From a bacterium (lineage in GTDB: Bacteria; Patescibacteriota; Minisyncoccia; Phycocordibacterales; UBA9973), in the NCBI GenBank assembly GCA_021824345.1, contig JAKAKW010000003.1, forward strand, positions 1 through 60,150: a DNA stretch of 60,150 bases. The letters run 5' to 3'. The position numbers and the translations under genes were made by a program. Below, piece after piece: positions 16,481 to 36,876 of the stretch. Numbering within the stretch: position 1 is the first letter of the stretch; each line of letters starts with the position of its first letter. The notes beneath the pieces were generated by a model. The model was given only the letters and a program-made list of their open reading frames with translations, had not been told where the DNA came from and searched no databases.

Positions 16481-16501
16481 GTGGGAGGCCTTGCCTCCCA
16501 C
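16481..16501. repeat. REP-like palindrome family 2, copy 1
   Basis: GTGGGAGGC-CTT-GCCTCCCAC. Confidence 0.8.
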
Positions 16502-21387: not shown

Positions 21388-21421
21388 TTGCCCTTTTGAA
21401 TCATGTACGCTATAATGTACA
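21388..21421 (+). promoter_or_regulatory. TA promoter with YefM-type TGTAC operator repeats
   Basis: TTGCCC-17-TATAAT; TGTACG at 21404 and TGTACA at 21416, 12 bp apart. Confidence 0.7.
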
Positions 21422-21425
21422 CATT

Positions 21426-21797
21426 ATGACCACAGTAAAAACAACCATTCCAATATCCGAAGCTCGCAAGCGCATTTTTGAAATCATGGACGAGGTGCAA
21501 GCGCCGCACAAGGTCTTTACCCTTACTTCCGATGGCAAACCAAAGGCCGTCGTAATGTCGGCTGATGAATATGAATCTTTAATGGAAACAATTGAAGTGG
21601 AACGCATTTTCCCCGACTTGGACAAAGATATCGCCGAGGTAAAAAAGGCTATGAAAACGGGCGTGTGGAAAAAATGGTCGACATTGGAGGACCTTGAAAG
21701 GAAATGGGGAATGAGTCCTTTAGTAGCCGAAAAACCAAAACGGAAATATGGCGTATCAACTTCTGGTAACAAAAAAGGCCGAAAAAAAGCTAGATAG
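21426..21797 (+). CDS. Phd/YefM family antitoxin
   Basis: TIPISEARKRIFEI...LTSDGKPKAVVMSADEYESL.ET. Confidence 0.9.
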   Translation: MTTVKTTIPISEARKRIFEIMDEVQAPHKVFTLTSDGKPKAVVMSADEYESLMETIEVERIFPDLDKDIAEVKKAMKTGVWKKWSTLEDLERKWGMSPLVAEKPKRKYGVSTSGNKKGRKKAR

Positions 21798-22002
21798 CCT
21801 GCCGTTGCCGTATAAGATAAGGATACGGGAGATGCTTGTTTACATTTCCCTGGACCCTTATTCCGGCAAGAAATTGTCCGGCAAGAAGAAAGGCCAGTAC
21901 TCCGTGCGGGTGTGGCCATACAGGATTATTTACCGAATAGAGAAAAAGGAACTGATCATAATCGTGATTGATGTTGACCACAGACAAGGGGTGTATAAGT
22001 AA
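21748..22002 (+). CDS. relE: RelE/ParE family toxin
   Basis: AEKKLDSL...GKKLSG...YSVRVWPYRIIYRIE...DHRQGVYK; overlaps the antitoxin. Confidence 0.9.
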   Translation: MAYQLLVTKKAEKKLDSLPLPYKIRIREMLVYISLDPYSGKKLSGKKKGQYSVRVWPYRIIYRIEKKELIIIVIDVDHRQGVYK

Positions 22003-22027
22003 AAAATTTATAACGCTTATCATAAAA

Positions 22028-22147
22028 TTTCAGTTATCAAGAATTATTTAATAACTGAAATAGCGGTAGGGAGTTGTAGAGGATTCCTCGGCAACTGAAA
22101 CCGCGGCGAGGCAGTTGTAAAGAATTTCTTGACAACTGAAACCGCCG
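22028..22147. repeat. Array of three 27-bp variable-core palindromes (CAGTTRT-N13-RYAACTG)
   Basis: Units 22031-57, 22071-97 and 22112-38; period 40/41; linkers start AAA(T/C)(A/C)GC; homologous unit at 22387-22413 inside rhuM. Confidence 0.85.
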
Positions 22148-22178
22148 AATTTTTGTGATAAAATATGCTTGCAACAAT

Positions 22179-23195
22179 ATGGATAAATCAAAAAAAGAAT
22201 GGATAAATAAATCAGATTTTCTTCTATACACCGCTCCCGGGGGTAATGTAAAAATTGAAGTTATTTTTCAAAATGAGACGGTATGGCTTAGCCAAAAGCG
22301 AATGGCCGATCTTTTTGGCATCGGAGTTCCGGCCATTAATAAACATTTAACGAATATATTTAAAAGCGGTGAATTAAGCCCAAAATCAGTTATTTCCATT
22401 TTGGAAACAACTGCGAGCGATAAAAAAAGGTACAAAACAAAATTCTACAATCTGGATGCCATTATTTCCGTCGGCTATCGCATTAATTCAGTTCAAGCTA
22501 CGCATTTCCGTATTTGGGCGACGAAGACCCTCAAAGAATATATTATCAAAGGATTTGCTTTAAATGATGAACGCCTTAAACAAGGCCCCAAACCTTTCGG
22601 CCGGGATTATTTCAGCGAGCTATTGGAACGAGTGCGTTCCATCCGAGCCAGCGAAAGGCGAATCTATCAAAAGATTACGGATATATTCGCAGAGTGCAGT
22701 ATTGATTATGATCCCGATTCAAAAATTACAAAGGATTTTTACGCCATGGTGCAAAATAAATTTCATTTCGCCATCACCGGGCAAACCGCCGCGGAAATCA
22801 TATATAAAAAATCGGATAAAACAAAGCCATTTATGGGCCTCACGACATGGAAAAACAATCCCAAAGGAAGAATATTAAAATCAGACGTCTTAATCGCTAA
22901 AAATTATCTCAAAGAAGACCAGATAAAACGTCTTGAGAGGACAGTTTCCGGATTCTTTGATTACATAGAAAACATAATTGAAAATCGCCAAAAACTTAAG
23001 ATGCGTGATTTAGCGGATAGCGTAGACAAATTTTTGAGTTTCAATGAGTATAAAATATTGCGAGGCAAGGGCAGAATTTCCCGAGAACTGGCGGAGAGAA
23101 AAGCCGCGGCCGAATATGACGATTTCAACAAAACGCAAGAGATAGAATCAGACTTTGACAGGGAAGTGGTAAGGCGGCTGAAGGATGCGGAGTAG
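22179..23195 (+). CDS. rhuM: RhuM family protein
   Basis: LLY...VFQNETVWLSQKRMADLF, YNLDAIISVGYRINS.QAT.FR.WAT, RIYQKITDIFA. Confidence 0.93.
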   Translation: MDKSKKEWINKSDFLLYTAPGGNVKIEVIFQNETVWLSQKRMADLFGIGVPAINKHLTNIFKSGELSPKSVISILETTASDKKRYKTKFYNLDAIISVGYRINSVQATHFRIWATKTLKEYIIKGFALNDERLKQGPKPFGRDYFSELLERVRSIRASERRIYQKITDIFAECSIDYDPDSKITKDFYAMVQNKFHFAITGQTAAEIIYKKSDKTKPFMGLTTWKNNPKGRILKSDVLIAKNYLKEDQIKRLERTVSGFFDYIENIIENRQKLKMRDLADSVDKFLSFNEYKILRGKGRISRELAERKAAAEYDDFNKTQEIESDFDREVVRRLKDAE

Positions 23196-23291: not shown

Positions 23292-25115
23292 ATGAGCAAA
23301 ACAAAGGTCCCAAAAGTGGCCAGAACCTCGGAAGACATAGATGACCAAAACCTACAGAAACTGCGGACAGCATTTCCTAATTTTGTAAAAGACAACAAAG
23401 TAGATTTTGACGCCCTGAAGGCATTCATGAATAAAGACGGAATTCTAGCCGGAGAGGAAAAATACGGTCTTTCTTGGGCTGGCAAGAGCAACGCTTTCAA
23501 GGCTATCAAGACCCCGGCTACGGGAACACTGGTTCCCCAGCCAAAAGAAAGCAAAAATTGGGACGAAACGGAAAACATTTTCATAGAAGGGGACAATCTT
23601 GAAGTTCTGAAACTTCTCCAGAAACACTACCGGGAGAAGATAAAGATGATTTACATAGATCCGCCCTACAACACCGGGAAGGATTTTGTATACAAGGATA
23701 ATTTTACCCAAGGAGTTTCCGATTACTACGAACAGACCGGGCAGACAAAAGATAGCATTAAAATGACCGCCAATACCGAGAAGAACGGCCGGTATCACAG
23801 CGACTGGCTCACCATGATGTATCCGCGACTTTTTCTGGCGAAGAATCTTTTGAAAGAAGACGGGGTCATTTTTGTTTCCATTGACGATCACGAGGTTGCA
23901 AACTTGCGGCTGATAATGGATGAAATTTTTGGAGAGGAAAATTTTGTGGCAAGTGTAATTTGGGAAAGAGCATATTCCCCAATTAATTTAAAAAAATATT
24001 TTTCTGAAAATCACGATTATGTTTTAACTTATGCAAAATCTTTAAACTCAATTCCTTCTTTAAATCTTTCTCGTAATGAAGAATCTGATTCTAGATACAC
24101 AAATCCGGACGATGATGTCAGGGGACCATGGAAGAGCACTGATTTTTCTGTAGGGCCTCGTGTAAACGATAATGTATACGAAATTAAAACACCATCTGGT
24201 AGGATCGTTTTACCTCCCACAGGAAGAAGTTGGATTGTATCGGAAGATAAATACAAAGTCCTTAATAAGGATAATCGTATATGGTTTGGTCCCGATGGTA
24301 ATTCAGTTCCTTCTAAAAAAAGTTTTCTCTCAGAAGTTAAAGGAGGTATAACTCCCATGACGTTATGGAAATATTCTGAAGTCGGACATAGCCAAGATGC
24401 TACAAAGAAACTCAAGGAACTTTTTGATGAAAAATCAGTATTTGAATATCCTAAACCTGTAGGATTGATAGAAAGAATGATAGAAATTTCTACATCAGAA
24501 AAGGATGTTGTTCTTGATTTTTTTGCGGGTTCAGGTACTACAGCACACGCCGTAATGGATTTAAACAAAGATGGGAGAAATATGAAATGGATTTGTGTTC
24601 AATTACCTGAAGTCATTGAAAAGGATAGTGAGGCATATAAAGTAGGTTATAAAACTATTGCAGACATAGCTCGTGAACGCATAAAAAGAGCTGGGAAGAA
24701 AATTCAGAAAGGAGATATTGGCTTTAAATCTTATAAGCTTTTATCCTCGAACTACAGGCAATGGAATACTATAACAGATAAAGATGATGAAAAAGAGATT
24801 CTTAAACAATCAAAGCTTTTCTTGGAAAAACCTCTGATTGATAATTTTGACGAGGAATCAGTCGTTTATGAAATATTACTAAAGGAAGGTTTTGATTTAA
24901 ATGCAAAAATAAAACAAGAAAAAGGAGAATTGAAACCATGGGTTGTTGAAGAGGAAAATAAAAAGGTTGTAATAACTTTTGCAAAATCTATATCAAAAGC
25001 GCAGATAGATAAACTGGAATTGTCCGAGAATGATGTGTTGGTGTGTTTTGATAATGCGATTAACGATACGATAAAAATAAATATTATAAATACTCTTAAC
25101 ATTAAGACTATATAA
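23292..25115 (+). CDS. mod: Type III R-M Mod subunit (adenine methyltransferase)
   Basis: IEGDNLEVLK, IYIDPPYNTG, DFFAGSGTTAHAV. Confidence 0.93.
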   Translation: MSKTKVPKVARTSEDIDDQNLQKLRTAFPNFVKDNKVDFDALKAFMNKDGILAGEEKYGLSWAGKSNAFKAIKTPATGTLVPQPKESKNWDETENIFIEGDNLEVLKLLQKHYREKIKMIYIDPPYNTGKDFVYKDNFTQGVSDYYEQTGQTKDSIKMTANTEKNGRYHSDWLTMMYPRLFLAKNLLKEDGVIFVSIDDHEVANLRLIMDEIFGEENFVASVIWERAYSPINLKKYFSENHDYVLTYAKSLNSIPSLNLSRNEESDSRYTNPDDDVRGPWKSTDFSVGPRVNDNVYEIKTPSGRIVLPPTGRSWIVSEDKYKVLNKDNRIWFGPDGNSVPSKKSFLSEVKGGITPMTLWKYSEVGHSQDATKKLKELFDEKSVFEYPKPVGLIERMIEISTSEKDVVLDFFAGSGTTAHAVMDLNKDGRNMKWICVQLPEVIEKDSEAYKVGYKTIADIARERIKRAGKKIQKGDIGFKSYKLLSSNYRQWNTITDKDDEKEILKQSKLFLEKPLIDNFDEESVVYEILLKEGFDLNAKIKQEKGELKPWVVEEENKKVVITFAKSISKAQIDKLELSENDVLVCFDNAINDTIKINIINTLNIKTI

Positions 25116-25119
25116 AACT

Positions 25120-26535
25120 ATGAAAAAGAATTGGGGTTTTAAGGAAGTTGCATTGAAGAATTTAATTCTTTGGGACAATAATCCACGTACTTTTGATAAA
25201 AATTCTCCTAATCCTAAGCAAAAAGATATCATATCAAGATATGATATAGATAAGCTTATACGTATTGCAAAAAATATTATTAAATACCAAGATAGCAACT
25301 TACAACCAGGTGAACTAACGGCAGTCAAAAAAGGGAAAAAATATATTGTTTATGATGGAAATAGACGTATTTCCGCTTACAAAATTTTGCTTGATCCTAA
25401 TCTAGTAAGCGAAAAAAAAGATAAAGTAAAAAAACTTTCTGTTAAGTTAAATTTTAAGGATACAAAGAAACTTCATTTCAATATAGCTCCAGATATTCAA
25501 TCTGCTCTTTCAAGGATTAATGATCTGCATAACGATAATTTTCACGAAAATTGGAATCCTACTGCGAAAACAAATTTTACACTTCTAAATATAAATGGAA
25601 AAATCAAAGAGTTAAACCAAAAAAAGACACATCTAAAAAGGGCCTCACTGTATGAAAAAATTAAATCTTTTAATTTCTCAACAGAAGTACAGGAAATTAT
25701 TTCTGATCCCGCAAAATTTAAAATAACAAGCCTTGAGAGAATAGTAGATAGTAATGTTGGTAAAAAATATTTATATTATCATTTTGATGAAAAAGGAGGA
25801 ATTGTTATTGATGGAGACGAGGAAAGGTTTAATGAAATTCTTAAAAAAATAATAGAGGATGTCGCTCTTGGAGTAGCAGATTCCAGAAAACAGCATAATA
25901 ATGAACAGAAAAAAGAATATTTTAATACTCTGCTTAAGGATCTTAATTTAAAGGAAAATAGTAGTAAAAATGAAAATGCTGCTAAAAAGAACACGCTCGG
26001 AAAACTTTCTAAGGAAGTTGAACTTATTCCGAGACGAAATTCTGTAAGATATACAAGTGAAAAGGCCGCCGAAATTGTTAAATATATTTTAATACACTTT
26101 GACTTTGTTGCCGAACAATTAAAAACGAGACATGATGGAAGACCTACCATTATTATTAATGATGAGTACGATGTCCAAGATCTTTTACACGCAATCTTAT
26201 CAATGTTTTTTGAAGATGTTGTAAGTGAAGAATGGAATCCTTCAGATGGAGCCTCCCCATCAAGACCCGATTTCTTATTAATGGATAATGGATCCATTAT
26301 TGAAGTAAAAACAACTTTAACAAGAAAATCTCAAGAATCTACTTTGAGAAAAAAATTAGAAGAAGAGTTAAATAATGATTTAATAAAATATAGCCGTAGA
26401 TCTGATTGTAAAAATATTTATTTATTTATTTATGATCCAGAACATAAAATTAAAAAACATACTACTTTTGAAAGAGGAATGTCGACTAAAAAGCTTGATG
26501 GTATAAGTGTTTTTACTCATATTAATAGAGGATAA
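25120..26535 (+). CDS. ParB-like N-terminal domain fused to a REase_DpnII/MboI-like nuclease
   Basis: YIVYDGNRR (ParB/Srx-like); C-terminus DEYDVQDLLHAIL...RPDFLL...IIEVK (PD-(D/E)XK). Confidence 0.75.
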   Translation: MKKNWGFKEVALKNLILWDNNPRTFDKNSPNPKQKDIISRYDIDKLIRIAKNIIKYQDSNLQPGELTAVKKGKKYIVYDGNRRISAYKILLDPNLVSEKKDKVKKLSVKLNFKDTKKLHFNIAPDIQSALSRINDLHNDNFHENWNPTAKTNFTLLNINGKIKELNQKKTHLKRASLYEKIKSFNFSTEVQEIISDPAKFKITSLERIVDSNVGKKYLYYHFDEKGGIVIDGDEERFNEILKKIIEDVALGVADSRKQHNNEQKKEYFNTLLKDLNLKENSSKNENAAKKNTLGKLSKEVELIPRRNSVRYTSEKAAEIVKYILIHFDFVAEQLKTRHDGRPTIIINDEYDVQDLLHAILSMFFEDVVSEEWNPSDGASPSRPDFLLMDNGSIIEVKTTLTRKSQESTLRKKLEEELNNDLIKYSRRSDCKNIYLFIYDPEHKIKKHTTFERGMSTKKLDGISVFTHINRG

Positions 26536-26540
26536 CTTAT

Positions 26541-27395
26541 ATGAAATTTTATTCTCCATTAAGATACCCAGGTGGAAAAAATAAATTGGCAAAATTTATT
26601 TCTTTAATTTGCGTAAGAAATAATATTAATGGCCATTATGTAGAACCGTACGCTGGCGGTGCATCCGTTGCTCTATATCTTTTAATGAATGGTTATGTTG
26701 ATAAAATAACCATTAATGATAAAGACAGGGCAATTTACGCTTTCTGGTATTCAGTTCTCCATTATAATGAAAAACTTTGCAACAAAATTAAAACAACGCC
26801 AGTCACAATGGAAAGTTGGGAAAAATATAAAAAAATATACGATAACAAGAAATATGAATCATTGTTTGATTTAGGTTTCGCAACCTTCTTTTTAAATAGG
26901 ACAAATCATTCGGGAATCATTGATGGCGGGGTGATAGGTGGCAAAGATCAAAAAGGAAATTATAAAATCGATTGCAGATTTAATAAAAAAGATTTGATAA
27001 GGAGAATAAAACTTATTGCGAAATACAAAAGTAAAATTAACTTATCAAATTTGGACGCCTTGGATTTAGTGAAAGAAATAAAGAAACAGAGTGAAAAACA
27101 AAACACAATATTTTATTTTGATCCGCCATATTATCTAAAAGGTCCATCATTGTATATGAATCATTATAAGCAAATTGACCACAAGAAAGTAAGTAAAAAA
27201 ATTCAGAATATAAAGGGTATAAGATGGATTGTCTCTTATGACAACGTTCCGGAGATTGAAAAATTATATTCTCGTTCAAGAAAAAAGGAGTATTCTTTTT
27301 TCCATACAGCGCAGGAAATAAAAAAAGCAGAGGAATTTCTATTTTTCAGCAGAGATTTAATTATTCCTAGAATTTTAGAGCCGACAAAAGTATGA
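26541..27395 (+). CDS. D12-class (Dam-like) N6-adenine DNA methyltransferase
   Basis: SPLRYPGGK, EPYAGG, YFDPPYY. Confidence 0.93.
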   Translation: MKFYSPLRYPGGKNKLAKFISLICVRNNINGHYVEPYAGGASVALYLLMNGYVDKITINDKDRAIYAFWYSVLHYNEKLCNKIKTTPVTMESWEKYKKIYDNKKYESLFDLGFATFFLNRTNHSGIIDGGVIGGKDQKGNYKIDCRFNKKDLIRRIKLIAKYKSKINLSNLDALDLVKEIKKQSEKQNTIFYFDPPYYLKGPSLYMNHYKQIDHKKVSKKIQNIKGIRWIVSYDNVPEIEKLYSRSRKKEYSFFHTAQEIKKAEEFLFFSRDLIIPRILEPTKV

Positions 27396-27423
27396 GAAAA
27401 CACAAAAATTCCAGTCTAATTTT

Positions 27424-27471
27424 TTCTCGTAATCGGTAAAATCGCTAAAGCGATTTTACCGATTACGAGAA
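27424..27471. repeat. Perfect 23-bp inverted repeat with a 2-nt spacer
   Basis: TTCTCGTAATCGGTAAAATCGCT-AA-AGCGATTTTACCGATTACGAGAA. Confidence 0.9.
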
Positions 27472-27566
27472 CGAATGTCAAGCAAAGCATTACGGTTGAT
27501 ATAGGTATAGATGATTTACTGAAAAGCATAAAATTTTTAACTGAATATATTTTATCAAAGAAAAAG

Positions 27567-30164
27567 ATGAAATTCAAATTTTCAAAAAACCTTGATTTCC
27601 AGCTTGACGCGATAAAAGCAATCGCTGACCTTTTTGATACGGGGAAGAATATTGTCCAGGCGGGCTCCTCTTTTGATTTGCAAAGCCTCTCGCCGGTTAT
27701 CGCAAACAGACTGGAAATTGATACCGGCCGAATTCTGAAGAATCTTCAGGTCATTCAGAAAAATAACAATATTGAACAGTCGGAAAATGTGAATTCTTTT
27801 GATTTTTCCGTTGAAATGGAAACAGGGACGGGGAAGACGTACGTGTATTTGCGCACCATTCTTGAGTTGAACAAAAAATACGGGCTGAAGAAGTTTATAA
27901 TTTTGGTGCCTTCCGTAGCCATTCGAGAAGGTGTGTTGAAAACAATTGAGCAGACAAAAGAACATTTTCGGGAGATTTACAACATAGGCTTCGGATATTT
28001 TGCCTATGATTCGGACAAGCTAAGCAAGGTAAGGGAATTTGTAAGTTCAAATGATGTACAGATAATGATCATGACCATACAGTCCTTTAATACCGATACG
28101 AATATCATGCGGCAGACCCCGGACCGTTTTCATGGAGACAGGCCGATTGACCTAGTGGCGGAAACGAAGCCGGTGGTAATCATGGATGAACCGCAGAATA
28201 TGGAATCGGAACTTGCAAAGGCTTCTATTTCCGACCTTAATCCGCTATTTAAGCTGCGTTATAGCGCAACTCATAGAGAAATTCATAATTTAGTTTATCG
28301 GCTTACTCCCGTTGACGCGTATAGAAGAGGACTAGTGAAAAAGATAGCGGTCTGCGGGGTAAAGGAAAGCGACCCGGGCGCTTTTATTTTTAAAGTGAAG
28401 GATATCATAACCAAAAGAGGAGAAAACCCCAAAGCAAAAGTAATTATTGAGGTGAAAAATGCAAACGGTGAGTATGGAGAAAAAGAAATTACCATAACGG
28501 CCGGAGACGATATTTTTAGGAAATCCAAGCAGAACCCGAAATACCACGACATTTTTGTGGAGGATGTGAATGCTACCCATGCGAGAGTAGAACTTTCTGA
28601 TGGAAAATTCTATGAACTAGAAGAAATGACGGAAGACAAGGAACTGATTTTCCGTACCCAAATCAAGGAAACTATCAAAGCGCATTTTGACAAACAGGAA
28701 GAAGTCGGAGATGAAATAAAAGTGCTTTCACTTTTTTTCATAGACAAGGTGGATAACTATGTGCACGAAGACAGCTTGATCCGTAAATTATTTATTGAAG
28801 AATTTAACAGACTGAAGAGAAATTATGACCGATTTAAAAAACTGGATGCAGAATCGGTTCATAAAGGATATTTTGCAAGCAAAAAAACAAAGGGAGTTGT
28901 TGAATATCAAGACAGTACCACTGGGGCTGCCAAGGCGGATAAAGAAGCTTATGATTTGATAATGAAAAACAAGGAACAACTCCTATCCTTTAGTGAGCCT
29001 GTTTCTTTTATATTCTCGCATTCCGCCCTAAAAGAAGGATGGGATAATCCAAACATTTTCCAGATATGTACTCTTCGCGAGACGAGGTCGGAAATGAAAA
29101 AAAGGCAAGAAATAGGCCGGGGATTGCGATTGCCTGTGGATATAAACGGAGACCGGGTAGAGAACCAAGATATAAATATTTTGACTGTGGTGGCTAATTC
29201 AAGCTACGAAGAATATGCTAACGGGCTTCAGGAAGAATTCAATGAGGCCGGATATACTGGAGAAATACGTCCGAGGAACGCGAAAGAAAAGAAAATAACT
29301 GTAAAGACCACGAAGTATCTAGTTTCGGAAGAATTTAAAGAATTATGGAAAAAAATCAGTAACCGAACGAAGTTTAGCTTGGAAGTGCTGACGGATAAAC
29401 TTATTAAGAACTCTGTAGAGAAAATAAATAAATTAGATATACGCAAAATCGTAGTTAGTGTGGAAAAAGGGGAGATTCATTTCAATGAGCTTGGACAAAT
29501 AAGCAGTAGTCGGGAAAATACTTCCATAGGACAGAGAATAGAAAGATATACCGCTGTCGGGAATTTCATTGATCGTATAGCTTCAGAAACCAGTATAACC
29601 CGAAAAACAATTTTTAATATTATTTCTAAGGTAAATAATCTATATCTCATATTTGAAAATCCAGAAGAATATATACGGAGCGTAATTTTGACAATTAAAG
29701 CCGAACTGAACGATATGCTTGTGAGTGAGGGATTAAAGTATATTCCTACAGGAGAAGTATGGGAAATAAAATTATTATTTTCCGATTTTGAGGCATTACC
29801 TAGCAGAAGTATAAAAAGCGAAAGATCCGTTTTTGAAAGAACTGTCTTTGACAGTAAGGGCGAAGAGGAATTTGCAAGAAATTTGGAACAAAATTCACAT
29901 ATAAAAGTATATACAAAGCTACCCCGAGGTTTTGTAGTAGATACTCCTCTTGGCTCTTATATACCCGACTGGGCTATTGTGTATAAAACGCCTGAAGGAG
30001 AGAAATTGTATCTTGTGCGAGAAACAAAGTTTGATTATGAAAATCTTGAGCGAGAGCTTACCTGGGAAGAAAAACAGAAAATAAAATGCGCGGAGAAGCA
30101 TTTTGCCGCCATAAAAGTGGATTATAAAGTTTCCGTCAAAAAAGATTTAAGCGATTTGAGATAA
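27567..30164 (+). CDS. res: Type III R-M Res subunit (helicase plus endonuclease)
   Basis: METGTGKT, MDEPQ, LKEGWDNPNIFQICTL, QEIGRGLRL; C-terminal YIPDWAIV. Confidence 0.93.
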   Translation: MKFKFSKNLDFQLDAIKAIADLFDTGKNIVQAGSSFDLQSLSPVIANRLEIDTGRILKNLQVIQKNNNIEQSENVNSFDFSVEMETGTGKTYVYLRTILELNKKYGLKKFIILVPSVAIREGVLKTIEQTKEHFREIYNIGFGYFAYDSDKLSKVREFVSSNDVQIMIMTIQSFNTDTNIMRQTPDRFHGDRPIDLVAETKPVVIMDEPQNMESELAKASISDLNPLFKLRYSATHREIHNLVYRLTPVDAYRRGLVKKIAVCGVKESDPGAFIFKVKDIITKRGENPKAKVIIEVKNANGEYGEKEITITAGDDIFRKSKQNPKYHDIFVEDVNATHARVELSDGKFYELEEMTEDKELIFRTQIKETIKAHFDKQEEVGDEIKVLSLFFIDKVDNYVHEDSLIRKLFIEEFNRLKRNYDRFKKLDAESVHKGYFASKKTKGVVEYQDSTTGAAKADKEAYDLIMKNKEQLLSFSEPVSFIFSHSALKEGWDNPNIFQICTLRETRSEMKKRQEIGRGLRLPVDINGDRVENQDINILTVVANSSYEEYANGLQEEFNEAGYTGEIRPRNAKEKKITVKTTKYLVSEEFKELWKKISNRTKFSLEVLTDKLIKNSVEKINKLDIRKIVVSVEKGEIHFNELGQISSSRENTSIGQRIERYTAVGNFIDRIASETSITRKTIFNIISKVNNLYLIFENPEEYIRSVILTIKAELNDMLVSEGLKYIPTGEVWEIKLLFSDFEALPSRSIKSERSVFERTVFDSKGEEEFARNLEQNSHIKVYTKLPRGFVVDTPLGSYIPDWAIVYKTPEGEKLYLVRETKFDYENLERELTWEEKQKIKCAEKHFAAIKVDYKVSVKKDLSDLR

Positions 30165-35153: not shown

Positions 35154-36845
<1,692 letters not shown>

Positions 36846-36855
36846 GATTTGGAAG

Positions 36856-36876
36856 GGCGGAGGGTTACCCTCCGCC
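36856..36876. repeat. REP-like palindrome family 1, copy 1
   Basis: GGCGGAGGGT-T-ACCCTCCGCC. Confidence 0.85.

Follow-up and report, generated by a model that had tools for sequence, protein, structure and literature searches.

In phage lambda, the dyad-symmetric sites for the N-terminal DNA-binding domain of the O protein (ori-lambda) lie within gene O itself, at the junction of the two protein domains. Among related phages the specificity of these sites changes together with the N-domain, and the iterons form a short array. Here we describe a partly similar arrangement at a rhuM gene located in a 60,150-nt stretch of DNA (contig JAKAKW010000003.1 of assembly GCA_021824345.1; hereafter the window) from a Patescibacteria metagenome-assembled genome whose source metagenomes are from mine drainage. 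One 27-bp palindrome resides among the codons of this gene, and three related units form an array upstream of it, ahead of a type III restriction-modification (R-M) system. As with lambda O and ori-lambda, a presumed site for an N-terminal DNA-binding domain is embedded in the protein's own coding sequence, and the class of the site tracks the N-domain. Unlike ori-lambda, which is a replication origin with four iterons in the gene, there is one in-gene site here and nothing that points to replication. The array also differs in being located outside the gene and in consisting of units of a non-cognate class.

Partition sites offer another comparison. In Bacillus subtilis, parS is found within spo0J (parB), and sopC of the F plasmid is composed of 12 tandem 43-bp repeats, each carrying a 7-bp inverted repeat bound by SopB. 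The elements at rhuM resemble parS in being placed inside the gene of the presumed binder, and resemble sopC in having a period of ~41-43 bp with one palindrome per repeat. However, there are 2.8 diverged copies here, and, in contrast to the conserved parS, the sites fall into classes that are hypervariable within the family. No ParA/ParB-type genes are present among the neighbouring genes scanned against Pfam.

The C proteins of R-M systems carry a helix-turn-helix (HTH) and bind palindromic C-boxes just upstream of the R-M operon, thereby timing its expression. The units described here are likewise palindromes just upstream of an R-M operon, but here a toxin-like protein is predicted to bind through one of its domains. 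C-boxes were rejected as an explanation because there is no candidate for a small HTH (C) gene in the list of open reading frames (ORFs) beside the R-M genes, of which only the larger were profile-scanned, and because the units do not fit the GACT...AGTC pattern that we take to be the C-box consensus. In type III toxin-antitoxin systems such as ToxI/ToxN, short tandem repeats of ~36-40 nt are located directly upstream of the toxin gene, as the array is relative to the toxin-like rhuM. An array of this type was also rejected, given that the repeats are 72% alike, that no terminator precedes the gene, and that RhuM is not a ToxN/AbiQ RNase. Furthermore, unlike ToxI repeats, units of the array type occur singly and inside genes elsewhere. 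REP/REPIN and Rickettsia palindromic elements, like the units of this family, are short, dispersed intergenic palindromes that are sometimes found in frame inside genes. Unlike these elements, the units have AT-rich centres and belong to discrete classes that follow a DNA-binding helix, and throughout a gene family they are found at one fixed codon position. A CRISPR-like array was dismissed because its defining features are lacking.

RhuM (COG3943, PDC-S05) is among the commonest passenger genes of R-M operons. It has been proposed to act as a toxin in R-M islands (PMC3710099) and is enriched beside invertible hsdS genes (PMC9881135). Full-text literature searches found neither a palindrome in rhuM nor arrays of this kind described, in agreement with an earlier note on this DNA, made from its sequence, whose author knew of no such system. 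The features that appear to be new are the free-standing array at a predicted R-M promoter, its non-cognate class, a clade of exceptional rhuM genes, an exchange of helix and palindrome as a module, and class-specific copies in viruses.

Architecture of the array upstream of rhuM

The parE stop is at 22002 and the rhuM ATG at 22179, and the intervening 176 bp contain three free-standing 27-bp units, called U1, U2 and U3, that begin at 22031, 22071 and 22112 (Table 1). These units, the fourth unit inside rhuM, their spacing of 40/41 bp and the relatedness of their linkers are as the earlier note had described them. Tandem Repeats Finder reports 22031-22145 as one array with a period of 41, 2.8 copies, and 72% matches. 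The linkers AAATAGCGGTAGG, AAACCGCGGCGAGG and AAACCGCC are homologous, and each begins with the GAAA that directly follows every upstream unit on its 3′ side to open a related sequence of 13-14 nt. When one mismatch is allowed, the pattern CAGTT-N17-AACTG occurs five times in the window, four of them at the rhuM locus, against 1.2 expected. A chance origin of the units was rejected on the basis of this count and of the Tandem Repeats Finder array.

U3 and the in-gene unit are near-perfect palindromes, whereas U2 includes two mismatches and one G-T pair. U1 is the most degenerate copy (10 Watson-Crick pairs, one G-T pair and two mismatches); its stem is formed by the outer 7 bp only and its core is self-complementary in part, as was also noticed earlier. 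Calculated DNA hairpin energies are -2.5 kcal/mol for U1 (z -1.8), -6.1 for U2, -7.1 for U3, and -6.7 for the in-gene unit. U2 and U3 differ at six of 27 positions, and four of these six changes constitute two compensatory pairs (9-19 and 12-16, G-C to A-T). Another compensatory pair (6-22) distinguishes U1 from U3. Taken together, these changes have a probability of p ~0.005 by a rough estimate that assumes random placement. The centre of U2 is TCC, which makes pair 12-16 a G-C pair, whereas in-gene alleles keep TTC, which codes for a Phe at a conserved hydrophobic residue and creates a G-T pair. U2 therefore obeys a DNA rule and not a coding rule.

Relative to the inferred transcription start near 22171, the unit centres are at about -46, -87 and -127, and this spacing equals four helical turns, which places the units on one face of the helix. 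U3 shares 3 nt with the predicted -35 element. The compensatory changes between array units, the helical phasing, and the overlap with the predicted promoter all count in favour of the units being docking sites for a protein.

The translations SVIKNYLIT, GVVEDSSAT, AVVKNFLTT and SVISILETT that had been assigned to the four units are correct, and the frames indeed shift from unit to unit. The units are also free of stops in the frame of the gene, although an open run of 9 codons is not significant in itself. No flanking coding similarity can be detected, and thus the array is no plain relic of gene duplication, as had been argued before.

A palindrome within the coding region of RhuM-family genes

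The in-gene unit was compared with those of 80 rhuM loci (62-71% protein identity; all major phyla and archaea), to which further loci were added later. An odd-centred palindrome exists at exactly these codons in 113 of 114 rhuM genes, across phyla, which favours a role as a docking site and bears out the supposition that the in-gene segment is variable yet palindromic among homologues. The RhuM proteins of 62-71% identity (loci L001-L080) are from Bacteroidota, Proteobacteria, Patescibacteria, Planctomycetota, Spirochaetota, Firmicutes and Methanosarcinales, a spread that implies extensive horizontal transfer. We define the element of RhuM and Bro-N genes as an odd-centred palindrome of 25-29 bp that covers the codons of the first wing strand, just 5′ of a DGK-x-Y motif. 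The in-gene unit of the window fits this description, and presumably it is this RhuM's own site.

The arms are wholly different between rhuM genes yet remain complementary (e.g. TTTCCAtttTGGAAA, ATCCGGAAAATCCGGAT, TGTGCAAATTTTGCACA, GTCAAGGATTTCTTGAC and ACCGAGGATTTCTCGGT). Inner replacements are compensatory (TTTCCA/TGGAAA, TCCGGA/TCCGGA and GTGCA/TGCAC), and the outer arms CAGTT/AACTG change to CAACT/AGTTG or GTGGTT/AACCAC. These changes alter the encoded peptide (SILE, RKFR, AKFA, KDFL, EDFS and others), and in Bro-N genes adjoining rhuM a unit of this kind is read in a different frame (QLYEKIVQL). Counted from the centre, pairs 2-7 and 10-12 are Watson-Crick in 97-99% of 86 unique sequences, against just 55% for pair 8. 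The paired positions are bipartite, with pairs 8-9 unconstrained. Sense-strand mismatches of the A.C type (29) exceed those of the G.U type (12), and therefore no sense-strand RNA signature is evident. Moreover, many classes are palindromic up to the central base, a property that a hairpin loop cannot exploit. A sense-strand RNA hairpin was rejected for the in-gene unit on these two grounds. Rather, the family palindrome points to a constraint on the symmetry of double-stranded DNA; neither the peptide nor a sense-strand RNA hairpin seems to be what is constrained.

Autoregulation via cognate upstream operators was rejected as a general rule because no cognate copy is present within 3 kb of the rhuM loci, except for the L232 group discussed below and a fragment in L071. 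This fragment (L071, 4174-4223) is a 50-bp copy, identical at 49 of 50 positions, of the in-gene unit and its short flanks, and is located 200 bp past the rhuM stop. Tandem rhuM paralogues were also encountered, with three genes in L140 and two each in L035 and L051, and their helix and palindrome classes always differ.

Covariation of the palindrome with the predicted recognition helix

An AlphaFold2 model of this RhuM (predicted local distance difference test score 64 overall, 70-90 for most of the N-domain) depicts a winged helix with helices at residues 39-46 and 50-63 followed by a beta hairpin (72-78/84-90). Among solved structures, a sequence search gave no match and a fold search gave no significant match. 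The core class of the palindrome sorts the genes by the start of helix 50-63. Specifically, TTTCCA is found with G[VI]PAISKH, GTTCCA with QRPAITKH, GTGCA with [ED]R[ST]VITKH, TCCGGA with DVRTVxEH, TTCGGA with KSTISEH, and CGAGG/CAAGG with xxDN[VI]SxH or TKQNISxH. In the window, the TTCCA-class unit is paired with the helix GVPAINKH, as the family rule expects.

At residues 48, 51, 52 and 55, the shares of column entropy accounted for by core class are 0.70, 0.81, 0.90 and 0.98, compared to 0.13-0.39 at nearly all other variable N-domain columns and 0.4-0.6 at a few low-entropy ones. All N-domain columns share phylogeny and linkage, yet these four stand out, and for this reason the coupling between helix and core seems to be specific. 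The protein search returned 26,840 RhuM representatives at 50% identity. With 1.8 billion representatives searched and 270 collected proteins added, 196 unique combinations of helix and wing obey the same rules. This pattern is best explained if each inner half-site (positions 8-12) sets a specificity class with which the start of the predicted recognition helix agrees.

Two natural experiments are relevant to this explanation. In the only clade of rhuM genes that lacks the in-gene palindrome (L232, L241, L249, L250 and L260; EVVSTFEVT, 4 of 13 pairs, helix VQLPAISKH), a perfect unit of the TTCCA class, which matches this helix, stands 190-250 bp upstream. The surrounding non-coding region has visibly diverged, and its longest stretch of 100% conservation (33 nt) consists of this unit and the six bases that precede it. 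In the other case, L088 and L262, two orthologous SNF2-rhuM-mod-res loci, show mostly 83-100% identity in windows of 30 nt, except in a tract of ~270 nt (rhuM +90 to +360) in which the helix changes from GIPAVNKH to TKQNVSLH and the core from TTTCCA to TCAAGG together. Both cases fit a protein and its own site moving as one module.

The free unit of the exceptional clade, located at 4318-4344 in L232, also occurs in L241, L249, L250, L256 and L260, and L256 carries it without rhuM. A 17-bp palindrome upstream of rhuM (CGTGACAAAATGTCACG) is unchanged between L088 and L262, and L086 has a compensatory variant of it (CGTTACAAAATGTAACG). This short palindrome upstream of the closest relatives was rejected as a RhuM-class operator because it is identical before SILE-class and KEFL-class alleles.

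Class of the upstream units and their copies elsewhere

U1-U3 belong to the same element family as the in-gene palindrome, as the earlier note had supposed, and they resemble units elsewhere at 25-26 of 27 positions, the comparison loci having been retrieved with patterns derived from U1-U3. Their half-sites (U1 CAAGA/TAAAT, U2 AGAGG/CGAGG, U3 AAAGA/CAAGA) represent an xRAGR super-class and not TTCCA, and thus their core class does not match the recognition helix of this RhuM. In other rhuM genes, the xRAGR class goes with helices such as TKQN[IV]SLH or CSADNVSLH. U3 agrees with a viral unit at 26 of 27 positions and with the in-gene unit of the sister allele L261 at 24 of 27. Sister alleles that have a U3-class in-gene unit are 72-76% identical to this RhuM overall and carry the helix TKQNVSLH. 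U3 also has 32/33 matches within other rhuM homologues on low-depth contigs of the same metagenomes; these matching-class rhuM genes, given their different depth, probably belong to other organisms. The core of U2, GAGGATTCCTCGG, is identical to that of a free-standing unit upstream of rhuM in Pseudidiomarina (L023). U1 shares 25 of 27 positions with viral and gut-phage-family units (CAGTTATTAAGAATTACTTAATAACTG) and resembles the IKKYLI class of other rhuM genes.

A scan of 2.9 million viral contigs revealed 22 U1-like, 22 U2-like, 35 U3-like and 34 SILE-class loci, where fewer than one of each is expected by our own estimate. Among distinct contexts, 12 of 18 for U1-like and 20 of 34 for U3-like units are outside any ORF of at least 300 nt, and several free viral units are positioned ~15-45 nt 5′ of a start codon. 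No RhuM-N or Bro-N gene lies beside the free viral units in 1.15 Mb of loci, apart from L135, L140 and L141, where the matched U1-like unit is the in-gene copy of rhuM. U3-like units are almost absent from a cultured-phage database.

The possibility raised earlier that upstream arrays accompany other rhuM genes held only in part: the array recurs at none of them, but single non-cognate units precede some rhuM genes, at 12-45 nt before the start in L004, L023, L037 and L072. When metagenomes were scanned for tandem pairs, only a gut-phage pair and L195 emerged. L195 is a type I R-M operon in which two free units (U3-like and U1-like, with a 16-nt linker) are located 29 nt before hsdS. The gene order at this site (L195, 3382-3453) is hsdM, an AlbA/Schlafen-like gene, the two free units, hsdS and hsdR.

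Several other occurrences were recorded. Units in frame within phage proteins are found at a prohead protease/scaffold junction (SVVKDFLTT; L149, L156, L173 and L181) and in acidic linkers (PVVEESSVT and TVTEDSSVT; L198, L203 and L208; L204, L205 and L214), and L198 contains two overlapping units that share AACTG. In the gut-phage family (L119, 7682-7744; also L107, L122, L183-L194 and L196-L197), the pair of 27-bp units is 20 nt past a gene stop. The last ~100 nt of this gene vary between contigs mainly at AAC/NNC codons and have the look of a variable region of the diversity-generating retroelement (DGR) type, ending in GFSVRCVRDK and the stop codon. This pair may double as the cruciform used by DGR targets. 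A KEFL-class rhuM is also located beside a DGR in L263 (1-1933; bAvd, reverse transcriptase, template repeat 712-748, variable repeat 6-42), although it is not the DGR target.

Possible functions of the array

We propose that the four units are members of one family of 25-29-bp, odd-centred, dyad-symmetric DNA elements that would serve as docking sites for dimers of the winged-helix N-domain of RhuM and Bro-N proteins. Each rhuM gene would normally bear one site at the place where it encodes the first strand of its wing, and the array would consist of locally duplicated, diverged and partly decayed sites of a different (xRAGR) class. Because this class goes with other helices, the expected binder is another RhuM- or Bro-N-type protein and not this RhuM, perhaps encoded elsewhere by a paralogue, a plasmid gene, or a phage gene. 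By binding at the array, where U3 abuts the predicted -35 element, this protein would control rhuM and perhaps also the type III R-M genes, whether as repressor or activator. The array may thus serve as a set of operators for a non-cognate RhuM-type protein at the predicted promoter of rhuM-mod-res. Our confidence in this reading falls somewhat short of even, because binding is inferred and the 60-kb window encodes no partner protein. Of the three readings in the earlier note, the proposal that the units are operators mirroring the binder's own coding DNA has the best support, albeit in modified form: helix and core co-vary, and the units are of a class other than this RhuM's.

Besides the missing partner, several observations weigh against operators of this kind. 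The rhuM promoter is called from a consensus match, and three metatranscriptomes of the same study give zero coverage of the locus. U1 and U2 are partly degenerate. The array itself is found nowhere else, with none in viral contigs; the tandem paralogues of L035 and L051 are without cross-class sites in their intergenic spacers; and the non-cognate units in L023 and L072 are the visible ends of decayed rhuM 5′ fragments. Lastly, helix and palindrome are ~45 nt apart, so linkage contributes to their covariation and is not fully separable from it.

These fragments lead to the main rival, still a live one and already contemplated in the earlier note as a record of earlier alleles, which we regard as doubtful but deserving of serious attention. 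It holds that the units are remains of an earlier rhuM/Bro-N-type gene or allele of which the palindrome and a few flanking bases persist, duplicated by slippage and lacking present function, with palindromy either kept by template-switch (quasi-palindrome) correction or surviving simply owing to a recent event. Upstream of rhuM in L023 and L072 there are indeed clear relics that contain stops or frameshifts; they end just past the palindrome and 12-18 nt before the rhuM start, and bare units lie 31-45 nt before the start in L037 and L004. The 50-bp fragment copy in L071, a short relic beside the three paralogues of L140, the decay of U1 and U2, and the identity of the array class with that of sister alleles at orthologous loci are all consistent with this history. 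However, no coding similarity is left around the units, and a separate duplication step is needed to generate three copies with homologous 13-14-nt linkers. The arms then changed in a compensatory fashion after duplication, which such a history leaves unexplained. Also, the allele difference between the orthologous loci is inside the gene, so these loci do not place a relic upstream. It is improbable, in our view, that the units are instead selfish or mobile mini-palindromes copied to new places by some mechanism, with the array as a landing cluster. Near-identical units do occupy unrelated contexts (the prohead protease/scaffold junction, the acidic linkers, and overlapping copies in L198), and a length of 27 nt equals 9 codons. 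The homologous linkers, however, point to local duplication and not to independent insertions, no pair of empty and filled sites or transposase was found, and class-specific conservation with helix covariation would demand recognition in any case.

Two further explanations place the function in RNA or in the rhuM coding sequence. The units might form RNA hairpins in the parE 3′ untranslated region or the rhuM leader that act as processing, stability or termination signals, to which we likewise assign a low probability. The 178-nt intergenic RNA folds at -55 kcal/mol (z -5.6), all units share the 3′ GAAA in the direction of transcription, and free units elsewhere often stand just before ribosome-binding sites. 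Against this, 22003-22178 includes no terminator-like site (there is no T-run, and GAAA follows the units instead), and a covariance-model search with Rfam 15 produced only chance-level matches (E at least 1.4, far under gathering scores). The predicted transcription start is downstream of the array, U1 barely folds, and exact 27-mers recur in unrelated genomes, which is not required of a generic hairpin. The palindromy up to the central base and the preference for A.C over G.U noted above for the in-gene units argue in the same direction. The weakest reading, and one we find hard to credit, is the earlier suggestion that the units are silent donor cassettes whose cores are copied into rhuM to switch the wing segment. 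The four units do have outer 7-bp arms in common, are stop-free in the gene frame, and correspond to a segment that varies among homologues. Yet a base-by-base comparison of four contigs shows 0 differences over 5-7 kb, the 10 others of 14 contigs carrying this protein being reported as similar places only. The contigs of four runs show the window form only, with no rhuM allele carrying an array core, although contigs can hide rare variants. U3-like copies in these runs have diverged flanks (6 differences in 47 nt) and therefore belong to other genes. No recombinase or reverse transcriptase is nearby (the neighbours are Fic, RadC, Phd, ParE, R-M methyltransferases, and restriction endonucleases), and the shared arms are just 7 bp, without long flanking homology. 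If only the core were swapped, it would no longer be coupled to the recognition helix, whereas the natural allele difference spans ~270 nt and includes the helix, not just the 13-bp core. Finally, U2 would place a Ser at the conserved hydrophobic position.

If the family does consist of docking sites, a site within the codons of a protein's own DNA-binding wing, diversified into classes that follow the recognition helix, would be an unusually compact way to keep protein and site linked through horizontal transfer, and the family would provide a ready-made table of helix-to-site specificities. Free copies at defence promoters and in phages would then mark communication between defence islands and mobile elements. 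A broader version, which we consider quite unlikely, is that defence islands and phages have in common a portable 'address' system, coded by class and made up of RhuM/Bro-N domains and their 27-bp palindromes. Each protein's address would be in its own gene, phages would carry free or in-frame copies, and defence loci would display an array of foreign addresses at the promoter as a multi-site sensor pad and not a relic. Once a phage or plasmid brought in a protein whose class matches, the toxin/R-M operon would be switched, or the array would titrate the protein. Conversely, if the array is only a relic, palindromes will have been shown to outlive the genes that bore them.

Genomic context of the locus

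The rhuM start codon is that of the public gene calls. The protein matches the RhuM domain PF13310 (E 1.2e-104; 349.6 bits versus a cut-off of 33.7) and the PADLOC defence candidate PDC-S05 (E 3e-149). As the earlier note recognized, a type III R-M system follows directly, with mod matching PADLOC MTase_III (E 6e-198) and res matching REase_III (E 1e-222). Relatives have contiguous rhuM-mod-res genes, and in the closest ones (78-80% identity) the order is SNF2 helicase, rhuM, mod and res, with rhuM abutting mod. The genes 5′ of the locus encode Fic, RadC and Phd/ParE.

Table 1. Features of the rhuM locus, with positions numbered from the start of the window.
Feature	Position	Strand	Description
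phd/yefM-parE toxin-antitoxin pair	21396-22002	+	parE stop 28 nt before U1
Tandem array	22031-22145	+	palindrome plus 13-14-nt linker; period 40/41 bp, 2.8 copies
U1, free-standing unit	22031-22057	none	CAGTTATCAAGAATTATTTAATAACTG; half-sites ATCAAGA / ATTAAAT
U2, free-standing unit	22071-22097	none	GAGTTGTAGAGGATTCCTCGGCAACTG; core GAGGATTCCTCGG
U3, best-preserved free-standing unit	22112-22138	none	CAGTTGTAAAGAATTTCTTGACAACTG; 12/13 pairs
Predicted sigma-70-type rhuM promoter	22136-22164	+	-35 CTGAAA, 17-nt spacer, TG-extended -10 TAAAAT; consensus match only
rhuM, 338 aa	22179-23195	+	N-terminal winged-helix domain and RhuM domain
Predicted recognition-helix codons	22326-22367	+	residues 50-63, VPAINKHLTNIFKS; AlphaFold2 model
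In-gene unit, TTCCA class	22387-22413	none	CAGTTATTTCCATTTTGGAAACAACTG; encodes residues 70-78 (SVISILETT), first wing strand
Type III R-M system	23292-30164	+	mod 23292-25115, res 27567-30164
Insertion between mod and res			PD-Lambda-5_A-like/DpnII-type restriction endonuclease 25120-26535; Dam-type methyltransferase 26541-27395

Other palindromes are present in the window. A perfect palindrome of 48 bp (24-bp arms) is located at 27424-27471, between the Dam-type methyltransferase gene and the type III res gene. Another perfect palindrome, of 40 bp, is found at 35154-35193, 12 nt 5′ of a groEL-like gene (35205-36845), and does not fit what we take to be the CIRCE consensus. In addition, GC-rich, REP-like palindromes occur at 36856, 38903 and 42199 (GGCGGAGGGTTACCCTCCGCC) and at 16481 and 47389 (GTGGGAGGCCTTGCCTCCCAC).

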